This document shows, one piece after another, positions 36,023 to 36,789 of a stretch of 53,996 bases of DNA. This DNA is from Verrucomicrobiota bacterium (GTDB taxonomy: Bacteria; Verrucomicrobiota; Verrucomicrobiia; Limisphaerales; UBA9464): contig JAPLUF010000090.1 in NCBI GenBank assembly GCA_026397755.1, positions 1 through 53,996 on the forward strand, read 5' to 3'. Under the pieces are notes generated by a model. It saw nothing but the letters and a program-made list of their open reading frames with translations, had not been told where the DNA came from and did no database searches. The position numbers and the translations under genes are program-made. The stretch's first letter is position 1. Each line of letters begins with the position of its first letter.

Positions 36023-36789
36023 ATAGAGGTAGGAATGGGGGATTGACCCCACCCCTCCCTCCGAACCGGACGTGCGGATTTCCCGCATCCGGCTCTCCAG
36101 TCGGTGAGTCACCCGCACAGGGCGGGACTGGTACGCTCGACACCAGCTGAGGCGTATGGAGAGATCAGCTCGTGAGTTGCGAAGTATCCCTAGGGATACT
36201 TTTACCCTCTTGCGAAGGGCTTTCAGCAGATGTTGGGATCCGGTGAACGGAGAGGCCGCACTCGAGGAGTTCGGTCCCGGAACCAGGGATTTAGGTCTTG
36301 CGACCATTATCTGGCTGCCTGGTGGCTCGTCACTTGTCCTTCCATCCTTCACCTTCCTACCTCCCTTGGCTCCACGGTCATTACCCGCTTCATAGCTACT
36401 ATGGAGGCTCTGACTTCCCCTCCGCTCTCCGTAGCACCGGCGGGGATCTCTTTGCTTAACTGACGGGCTTTCCCGGCCTTCTCACCCCAAACACCCTCGG
36501 ACTCCCGGACGACCGTGCTGACAGGCTTGGTGATCGCTTTGGGCAGGTCTGGGACCTGGGCTTCGCCTTTTCTCCGCAGGCTCGCCATTCCGAAAGGCCG
36601 AATCGGGTTCAACTGCCTTAGCAGGCTGTTTTGGGACGGCAGGTTCGCTTCCGGCTGCTCCCCACCCCGCCTTGCGGTGACGCAGTTGCCTTCAGCTACA
36701 CGACGCCCTGTCGGCATCGTACTCAGTCTTTCACTGGTTAGTCTCATCAGTTTCACAAACGCACGGAGAGTGCGCCCTGCCGGGCGCAC
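36023..36789 (-). mobile_element. ORF-less group II intron (ribozyme only, about 0.77 kb)
   Basis: The minus strand starts GUGCGCCCGGCAGGGCGCAC (GUGYG consensus) at 36789. Domain V is GAGCCGGAUGCGGGAAAUCCGCACGUCCGGUUC at 36095-36063. A domain VI-like helix follows, with a bulged A 8 nt before the ...CCUCUAU end (about 36023; the 3' end is uncertain by a few nt). There is no RT ORF. Confidence 0.8.

Follow-up and report, generated by a model that had tools for sequence, protein, structure and literature searches.

A spacer between a DUF6370 gene and a tRNA-Gln gene of a Verrucomicrobiota bacterium (assembly GCA_026397755.1, contig JAPLUF010000090.1, positions 1 to 53,996; this whole stretch of 53,996 nucleotides is referred to as the window) very probably carries two nested group II introns, namely a 742-nt inner intron of class C (IIC) type without an open reading frame (ORF), modelled as a deletion derivative that is mobilised in trans, and the remnant of an outer IIC intron that surrounds it. 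A first-pass annotation, made from the letters of the DNA, had proposed a single ORF-less intron of about 0.77 kb (767 nt) that starts with the GUGCG at 36789, behind a rho-independent terminator, and that adjoins tRNA-Gln, which is confirmed as tRNA-Gln(UUG). Two elements were merged in that proposal, with the 5' GUGCG at 36789 and the 3' end formed by domain V and domain VI (DV and DVI) belonging to different introns, one nested in the other. A GUGCG does follow the terminator in the manner of IIC introns, but it belongs to the outer intron and not to the one that bears DV, the true start of which is a second GUGCG at 36764; likewise, the 3' end of the DV-bearing intron at 36023 stands, but the insertion as a whole comprises ~860 nt and reaches ~35930.

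Boundaries of the inner intron

The extent of the inner intron can be read from its relatives. A spurious 146-residue ORF that runs over domains I to III has 96 metagenomic clusters as matches in a protein database search, and in all 96 of these the similarity starts at ...LR/AFVKLMRLTSERL (LR/AFVKLM), which corresponds to nt 36764, the upstream sequences being unrelated and differing between copies. A 127-residue ORF over domains IV to VI matches 14 more clusters, all of which share ...HSYLY (that is, ...CCUACCUCUAU) and then diverge, so that this 3' end is common to copies with differing downstream flanks. Because the similarity of the relatives starts at 36764 and ends at CCUACCUCUAU, the inner intron is assigned to 36764-36023 (742 nt).

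The 5' junction is further supported by the pairing between exon-binding site 1 (EBS1) and intron-binding site 1 (IBS1). In an alignment of the window with the metagenomic contigs L019, L020 and L021 and a Paraburkholderia intron, a conserved hairpin of the form GCCU-N9-AGGC holds a variable hexamer that pairs in register with the last exon bases. Since GGAGA in this loop pairs with UCUCC, a pairing that is incompatible with an exon ending in ...UUCAUU, the 5' splice site is placed at 36765/36764. The corresponding EBS1/IBS1 pairs are GGAGA/UCUCC in the window, GUAGG/CCUAC in L021, GGAG/CUCC in L019, ACUAAA/UUUAGU in Paraburkholderia copy 1, GGAGU/GCUCC in L027 and GUAGC/GCUAU in L022. This pairing covaries, with changes on both sides in 5/5 pairs and a score of 0.393 as compared to 0.222 in shuffles (1/500 reach it), and sliding the IBS1 partner lowers pairing from 81% to 39-50%. 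The AAUGA/UCAUU pair previously put forward for EBS1 has to be abandoned in favour of GGAGA/UCUCC, as its intron side, GGGUAAUGACCG (36386-36375), falls in the loop that closes domain III when aligned to RF01998 and to the relatives.

In seven contexts (the window, L019, L020, L021, L022, L027 and Paraburkholderia copy 1) the insertion site lies 3-8 nt behind the end of a stem-loop, a part that the outer intron's 5' hairpin plays in the window. Insertion shortly after a stem-loop is the target rule described for IIC introns (PMC4424553, PMC12584367). Two of these sequences are informative for target sites only, as the L027 contig ends before domain IV and L022 is a 5' fragment of only ~210 nt.

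The outer IIC intron

The outer intron starts with GUGCGCCC... at 36789, its 5' hairpin being GUGCGCCC-GGCA-GGGCGCAC, and 58 recognisable nt of it survive (36789-36765 and 36022-35990). A canonical IIC 5' end is thus found directly behind an intrinsic terminator (36820-36796), which is the placement expected of class C. Bona fide IIC introns in the viral contigs L009-L015 begin with precisely the 20-mer GUGCGCCCGGCAGGGCGCAC; for example, in L015 it opens a 1.9-kb intron behind a terminator, which encodes a 463-residue intron-encoded protein (IEP) lacking the endonuclease domain (En-less) and scores 141 bits with RF02001, 57 bits with RF01998 and 43.5 bits with RF00029. Typical IIC introns proceed from this 20-mer into ...GGAGGUGAAAGUCCUCU-ACAC-GCCCGGCAAGGGG, a continuation that the window lacks after 36765 and takes up again right after the 3' end of the RF00029 match, as AACGGGUUAAAGUCCCGAGCAGGCCCGGCAGGG.

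A hidden Markov model (HMM) of IIC domain I, searched with nhmmer, places its two best hits in the window at 36789-36767 (model positions 1-23, E 1e-3) and 36018-35990 (model positions 30-58). In-silico deletion of 36764-36023 joins them into one gapless match over positions 1-58, with 25.4 bits (E 3e-7) for a model built from independent IIC introns and 40.8 bits (E 1.2e-12) for one that additionally includes intact host introns, and the score peaks when the deletion has the exact boundaries 36764-36023. Excising the inner intron therefore restores a contiguous outer sequence, as is expected of a twintron. Moreover, the same outer 5' piece precedes the inner intron in the contigs L018 and L023-L026.

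Nothing is recognisable of the outer intron beyond model position 58, and the window contains neither a second DV nor a reverse transcriptase (RT), so that a complete outer ribozyme with an IEP is not present. The outer element is a remnant without a catalytic core, and only the inner intron could splice in the window. For annotation, it follows that the nearest DV and the first GUGYG behind a terminator may be parts of different introns. IIC introns with the same 20-nt 5' end also lie just downstream of tRNA genes in the putative phage contigs L010 (2687-2760) and L011 (5279-5390), the L010 intron being truncated to only ~60 nt that are followed by unrelated AT-rich sequence.

Anatomy and relatives of the inner intron

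In an Rfam scan of the whole window the single group II hit is RF00029 (DV-DVI) at 36097-36023 on the minus strand, with 57.1 bits (gathering score 40, E 1e-8) over the full model (1-77). The group II intron that had been recognised on this strand is thereby borne out, including DV at 36095-36063 with its AGC triad and AC bulge, and DVI with an A 8 nt before ...CCUCUAU and an end at 36023; the perfect palindrome GUAUCCCUAGGGAUAC in domain IV (36199-36184) is equally present, and the statement that the 146- and 127-residue ORFs lack RT motifs agrees with a Pfam scan in which neither gave any domain, RT domains included. The window DV is identical to that of the other ORF-less copies. Upstream of it, domains I to III comprise 405 nt, a size in keeping with the IIC type, and the ribozyme amounts to ~480 nt excluding domain IV. 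Domain I contains a stem I(i) formed by AACUGA (36752-36747) and UCAGUU (36463-36458), a GUGAAAG hairpin (36737-36725) and GCUGAAGGCAAC (36696-36685), and the stretch of domains II and III shows an 87.7% match to the sequence that directly precedes ltrA in introns of E. coli plasmids. In the inner-family alignment 28 of the 100 pairs predicted by RNAalifold are preserved by changes on both sides, a count from which stem I(i) was left out because MAFFT misaligned it when the Paraburkholderia sequence was included.

The Rfam models for domains I to IV reach the inner intron only in a permissive search (RF02001 at 36681-36460, 18.7 bits; RF01998 at 36443-36362, 19.4 bits). By comparison, RF02001 reaches 134-156 bits with typical IIC introns and 41.8 bits with the Paraburkholderia relative; the two scores of the inner intron, far below threshold, point to a divergent ribozyme lineage. 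The covariance-model check proposed in the first-pass annotation, which had counted the lack of a significant hit outside the DV-like hairpin against an intron, thus came out divided, with a strong RF00029 match on the one hand and sub-threshold models for the remaining domains on the other. The assignment to group II is nevertheless upheld by homology to IEP-bearing relatives, and the inner intron displays the hallmarks of the group: GUGCG at 36764, domains I to III that are 82% identical to those of L021, the DV triad and the bulged branch-point A.

L021 contains a full-length metagenomic relative of 1857 nt with a 437-residue IEP, and the inner intron shows 82% identity to L021, L019 and L020 over domains I to III and DV-DVI. 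The L021 IEP scores 365 bits on TIGR04416 and consists of RVT_1 and GIIM only, being En-less; its best PDB matches are RTs of IIC introns (7UIM, 7.9e-71; GsI-IIC 6AR1, 2.4e-65), ahead of IIB and IIA RTs, and as the window copy itself has no IEP, it is these matches of the relative that may hint at its class. The flanks of the L021 intron (4146-4175 and 6033-6120) contain a GGUGAA loop and CUGAAGGAA motifs reminiscent of group II domain I, but nhmmer with the IIC HMM gave no hit that would mark them as a decayed IIC intron.

The closest annotated ribozyme is that of the tandem introns of Paraburkholderia aromaticivorans pBN3 and Cupriavidus (ltrA WP_095423828.1), which share with the inner intron the domain I blocks GUAGCUGAAGGUAACUGCGUC...GGGGUGGGGAG, the frame of the EBS1 hairpin, DV-DVI and insertion after a stem-loop. 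In contrast to the inner intron, the Paraburkholderia intron is autonomous, with an intact En-less IEP of 445 residues, and has the 5' end GUACG with an extra hairpin; it also belongs to a different phylum, and its copies are arranged head to tail rather than nested. On pBN3 (L017, 1222-4943) two identical En-less introns follow each other without a spacer (...CCUACCCCUAU/GUACGCCC...), each with the 5' end GUACG, their DV-DVI scoring below the RF00029 gathering score, and there are eight matching places on the plasmid. One relative of the inner intron, P0067, is labelled Verrucomicrobiales. Scans of genomes and metagenomic contigs with a DV pattern yielded, among the matches listed, only introns of other classes, whose DV is shared by convergence (L003-L008). 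One of these, an unrelated group II intron in Candidatus Accumulibacter affinis (L003, 5711-7645; RF02003, 102 bits), has a DV that fits a loosened form of the window pattern and an RT frame that is broken into several ORFs, its IEP being apparently degenerate.

Loss of the intron-encoded protein

Domain IV of the inner intron carries no functional IEP. It opens with the conserved AGGAAGGUGAAGGAUG, a Shine-Dalgarno-like sequence plus AUG that is followed by only 12 codons, and this conserved start may still form part of an IEP-binding site. It had been held that domain IV consists of short hairpins only, a description that needs to be corrected, as tblastn aligns residues 376-437 of the L021 IEP with inner nt 465-653 (36300-36112) at 33% identity (E 2e-6), with three in-frame stops. 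At the nucleotide level, blastn gives 82.5% identity to L021 over 177 nt that span the 3' end of the IEP gene and DV-DVI, and the similarity is interrupted from ~12 nt after the start of domain IV until ~100 nt ahead of DV. Since only this stop-ridden C-terminal remnant remains, the inner intron is best described, on sequence grounds, as a deletion derivative of an IIC-type intron that has lost ~375 codons, comprising the RT and most of the thumb/X domain.

No long ORF with a YxDD motif is found in the whole 54-kb window, and three intron RTs (the IEPs of Paraburkholderia, L015 and E. coli) have no significant tblastn match in it, the only collinear match being that of residues 400-443 of the Paraburkholderia IEP to domain IV (E 0.4). 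A trans-acting maturase consequently has to be assumed, as had been stated in the first-pass annotation. One sigma-70-like promoter match (GTGACG-16-GATAAT) lies in inner domain IV at 36306-36333 on the minus strand; the count for the region, 1, is near the 0.5 expected from shuffles.

Further copies of the nested element

The ORF-less intron of the window recurs, domain IV included, in L018, L023/L024 (one locus from two samples), L025 and L026, where it invariably interrupts an outer IIC intron at nt 25/26. Terminators that differ from case to case precede these outer introns, except in L025, where the DV-DVI of a further IIC intron takes this place. Intact outer sequence follows the inner intron in L023 and L026, with matches to RF02001 (134 bits) and RF01998 (65 bits) right behind the RF00029 hit of the inner intron. 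Over 742 nt the inner copies (window, L018, L023/24, L025, L026) differ by 0.4-1.1%, with 11 variable positions in total and no window-specific change in DV or DVI, whereas the adjoining 42-58 nt of the outer intron differ by 4-12%, about 10 times the inner divergence (for the window against L023, Fisher p = 2e-5). As the flanking genes and terminators differ among at least four other loci, these copies are not duplicates of one locus, and such near-identical copies at at least four other sites imply, as far as sequence comparison can tell, recent mobility in trans. A single deletion derivative is therefore found nearly unchanged in at least five sequence contexts, within a family of ~100 metagenomic clusters, and such elements would be missed by surveys that rely on RT genes or on the Rfam models for domains I to IV.

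Several copies deviate from this arrangement. The ORF-less intron is also found with 3' flanks that are not of IIC type (P0103, P0105 and P0108). In P0101, at the protein level, it is followed after ~16 codons by the DV-DVI of an L021-type intron, and here it appears to be nested in a second kind of host, near the host DV. A more distant relative, P0061, has a domain III that at the protein level runs directly into DV and is thus a still smaller ORF-less form. In L025 (720-805) the nested element lies directly behind the DV-DVI (CGC triad) of another IIC intron, forming a tandem IIC array; its outer 5' end is mutated to UUGCG and its outer 3' part is truncated after ~17 nt. The outer 5' end in L018 reads AUGCG.

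Proposed history and alternative explanations

According to the nested model, the outer IIC intron would have arrived first, by terminator-directed retrotransposition right behind the DUF6370 terminator. The inner IIC-type intron would then have reverse-spliced between outer nt 25 and 26 with an RT supplied in trans, at a site that has the layout of an IIC target, that is the outer 5' hairpin GUGCGCCC-GGCA-GGGCGCAC followed by the short IBS1 UCUCC that can pair with GGAGA. Later on, the outer intron would have decayed to its first 58 nt, perhaps together with an unrecognisable tail of ~60 nt. RNA of the element would be made by read-through of the DUF6370 terminator, and a related IEP encoded elsewhere in the genome (of the 437-residue L021 type, or that of a host IIC intron) would assist splicing and perform reverse transcription in trans. 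With GUGCG, domains I-III, the DV AGC triad and the bulged A of DVI, the parts of the inner ribozyme are intact, and we infer that the window copy is still splicing-competent and that it was mobilised in trans by such an RT; splicing would generate the ligated junction 36765 to 36022, ...CACUCUCC/AACGGG... An effect on the expression of host genes is probably absent, because the element is intergenic behind a terminator and the host intron is dead.

That a single 767-nt ORF-less class C intron runs from 36789 to 36023 behind the terminator, with the ~95 nt downstream being unrelated spacer or a 5'-truncated intron fragment, is extremely improbable. It would account for the GUGCG right after the terminator U tract and for the small hairpin that IIC introns, including that of Paraburkholderia, have after GUGYG and that the inner intron lacks when started at 36764. 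However, no similarity to the relatives is left upstream of 36764; the conserved GUAGCUGAAGG lies 65 nt from a 5' end at 36764, as compared to 63 nt in the Paraburkholderia intron, and would lie 90 nt from one at 36789; GGAGA pairs with UCUCC and not with UUCAUU, and covaries in relatives; the 33 nt downstream continue IIC domain I in exact register with 36765; and intact outer introns enclose the same element in L023 and L026. It is also very unlikely that the composite moves as a unit, the outer IIC intron transposing with the inner one as an immobile passenger, even though in 5/5 sequenced contexts (the window and four other sites) the inner intron is accompanied by the 5' 25 nt of the outer one, behind a different terminator or IIC intron. 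The greater divergence of the outer flanks, ~10 times that of the inner copies, favours recent independent insertion of the inner intron into diverged hosts over such co-transposition, as do its occurrences with other 3' flanks (P0103, P0105, P0108) and in a different intron (P0101). Furthermore, judging from the behaviour of twintrons (PMC4424553), a 742-nt insert in stem I(i) is expected to keep the outer intron from folding as long as it has not been spliced out, and once spliced out it would no longer be part of the mobile RNA.

Somewhat less remote, although still unlikely, is that the inner intron is an immobile and possibly splicing-dead relic, the near-identity of its copies resulting from gene conversion, recent locus duplication or strain redundancy between metagenomes. 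Neither the element nor the window has an RT, ORF-less introns have according to a review generally lost retromobility (PMC4424553), and L023 and L024 are one locus seen in two samples; on the other hand, flanking genes and terminators differ among the other loci, at least four in number, the catalytic landmarks are all intact with no window-specific DV/DVI change among the 11 variable positions, and trans-splicing and trans-mobilisation of ORF-less bacterial introns by related IEPs have been documented (PMC4424553, PMC12584367, PMC2882425). The nested, trans-mobilised model is itself weakened by several observations. The L020 exon (CUUU) pairs poorly in register with its own EBS1, and EBS1 of the second Paraburkholderia tandem copy does not pair with its exon. 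On the inner intron RF02001 and RF01998 remain far below their thresholds (18.7 and 19.4 as compared to 32 and 35 bits), which is why its class C membership, already suggested in the first-pass annotation, is supported through its relatives, its target sites and the IEP of a relative. In addition, the near-identical copies come from different metagenomes and need not share a genome with the window, no helper RT is encoded within the 54-kb window, and the last ~60 nt of the insertion (35989-35930) match neither intron.

About an even chance may be given to a further interpretation, in which this non-autonomous IIC-type lineage has turned into a parasite of another intron family. It would multiply through reverse splicing at position 25/26 of a particular IIC intron, whose 5' hairpin mimics the terminator stem-loop usual for IIC targets, and would borrow an RT, possibly from its host. 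If true, every new copy of the host intron would provide it with a further homing site. The arrangement suggests that another intron's 5' hairpin can stand in for the hairpin that the IIC rule requires next to a short IBS1, which would offer a simple route to twintrons and to intron-on-intron parasitism.

Comparison with known introns

Both kinds of element, ORF-less intron and twintron, are already known, and the twist lies in the nesting of a IIC intron in a IIC 5' hairpin; in the limited library of literature that was searched, no account of this arrangement or of any IIC-in-IIC twintron was found. Among class C introns (B.h.I1, GsI-IIC, O. iheyensis, E. rectale), the outer element resembles its counterparts in its canonical IIC 5' end and its post-terminator site. 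The inner family resembles them in its insertion a few nt after a DNA stem-loop, its short EBS1-IBS1 pairing and its small ribozyme, and through the En-less 437-residue L021 IEP, which is closest to IIC RTs in the PDB. It differs in that the inner intron is too divergent for RF02001 and RF01998, lacks an IEP and has as its target the 5' hairpin of another intron instead of a terminator.

Bacterial and archaeal twintrons, as well as repeated homing of introns into introns in Methanosarcina, have been documented (PMC4424553, PMC4649490, PMC2882425). The nested introns of Methanosarcina acetivorans and the twintrons of Thermosynechococcus and Trichodesmium are similar to the present case in having a group II intron within a group II intron and ORF-less members, in homing repeatedly and site-specifically into introns, and in an intergenic position that leaves host genes unaffected (PMC4424553, PMC4649490, PMC2882425). 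Here, by contrast, both partners are of IIC type, the point of insertion is in domain I, 25 nt behind the 5' end, and not in an intron ORF or domain IV, and sequential splicing is moot as the outer intron of the window is a stump.

With regard to ORF loss, it has been described that ORF-less bacterial introns can be served by related IEPs (PMC4424553, PMC12584367, PMC2882425). The ORF-less introns of Trichodesmium dnaN and T. elongatus share with the inner intron the status of a deletion derivative with an intact ribozyme and multiple near-identical copies, and, as in those systems, IEP-encoding relatives exist in the same environments. They are, however, located in housekeeping genes or belong to other lineages, whereas the intron described here is IIC-like and its host is a selfish element; accordingly, the T. 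elongatus RT (PDB 6ME0) ranks below IIC RTs as a match to the L021 IEP.

The locus and its empty site

The DUF6370 gene has the same orientation as the introns downstream of it, and its 99-residue protein is identical on two short metagenomic contigs, L001 and L002. The terminator hairpin of this gene is followed by UUCAUU up to 36790, the T run ending just before the GUGCG at 36789, so that the junction reads ...AAACCCGCCUGAUUCAGGCGGGUUUUUCAUU/GUGCGCCCGGCAGGGCGCACUCUCCGUGCGUUUGUG... on the minus strand. tRNA-Gln(UUG) is convergent with the intron-bearing transcript. All coordinates are given in Table 1.

Table 1. Coordinates of the nested introns, their parts and the neighbouring features in the window
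Feature	Position	Strand	Basis or remarks
DUF6370 gene	36864..37163	-	99-aa protein, signal-peptide-like N-terminus; Pfam PF19897, E 4.8e-9
Rho-independent terminator hairpin of the DUF6370 gene, AAACCCGCCUGAUUCAGGCGGGUUU	36796..36820	-	Terminator scan: 11-pair stem, 7 GC pairs
Outer IIC remnant, 5' piece GUGCGCCCGGCAGGGCGCACUCUCC	36765..36789	-	5' GUGCG, 5'-terminal hairpin, start of stem I(i)
IBS1 UCUCC for the inner intron	36769-36765	-	Pairs with EBS1 GGAGA; last 5 nt of the outer 5' piece
Inner ORF-less IIC-type group II intron, 742 nt, GUGCGUUUGUG... to ...CCUACCUCUAU	36023..36764	-	Relatives, RF00029
Inner domain I (3' limit approximate)	36446..36764	-	Alignment with L019, L020, L021 and the Paraburkholderia intron
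EBS1 GGAGA	36571..36575	-	Loop of hairpin GCCU-GCGGAGAAA-AGGC (36581-36565)
Domain II	36445-36417	-	Sub-threshold RF01998 alignment, alignment with relatives
Junction of domains II and III (J2/3), AAGUCAGA	36416-36409	-	Alignment with relatives
Domain III	36408-36360	-	Sub-threshold RF01998 alignment; terminal loop GGGUAAUGACCG at 36386-36375
Domain IV without functional ORF	36098..36359	-	No Pfam domain
Decayed remnant of the C-terminal 62 IEP (RT/maturase) codons	36112..36300	-	tblastn with the L021 IEP
Domain V (GAGCCGGAUGCGGGAAAUCCGCACGUCCGGUUC)	36063..36095	-	RF00029 alignment; AGC triad, AC bulge, GAAA loop
Domain VI	36023..36062	-	RF00029 alignment; bulged A 8 nt from the 3' splice site, ...CCUCUAU end
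Outer IIC remnant, 3' piece AACGGGUUAAAGUCCCGAGCAGGCCCGGCAGGG	35990..36022	-	Domain I resumes in exact register with 36765
Tail of the insertion (CUCAGUUUCCGACACCGCUGAAGGAAGAUUCC...GGGGGAGAUUUUGUCUCUAU)	35930..35989	-	Not present in L001, L002
tRNA-Gln(UUG)	35790..35863	+	ARAGORN; RF00005, 63.8 bits

L001 and L002 represent the empty site, in which the terminator reads ...GGCGGGUUUUUUAUU/AAGCGCUCAAAAAGUUUUAGCGCUCAAAAAGGGCCC...tRNA-Gln, with the repeat spacer directly after UUAUU and no intron; their flanks are 83% identical to the window upstream and 95% on the tRNA side. Compared with this empty site, the window has an insertion from 36789 onwards, which extends past 36023, so that ~95 nt beyond the intron 3' end (36022 to ~35930, ending ...GUCUCUAU) are missing from L001 and L002 as well. 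The tail at 35930..35989 may represent further decayed outer intron; 35989-35917, however, aligned locally with intact outer introns no better than shuffles did. The exact 3' edge of the insertion is blurred because a short tandem repeat, CAGCGCUCAAAAAG(UUU), adjoins it. This repeat occupies 35881-35929 on the minus strand, between the insertion and tRNA-Gln, and is also found in L001 (1290-1325); the window has two full units and one partial unit (CAGCGCAGUUGGU), and the empty-site contigs have two. A 15-nt duplication of the 5' arm of the terminator (AAGACAAACCCGCCU) is present in L001 (~1275-1290) and L002 (alignment A1, columns 76-90) and absent from the window. Elsewhere in the window, a thiamine pyrophosphate (TPP) riboswitch aptamer lies at 51350-51461 on the plus strand (RF00059, 65.8 bits as compared to a gathering score of 54.3).

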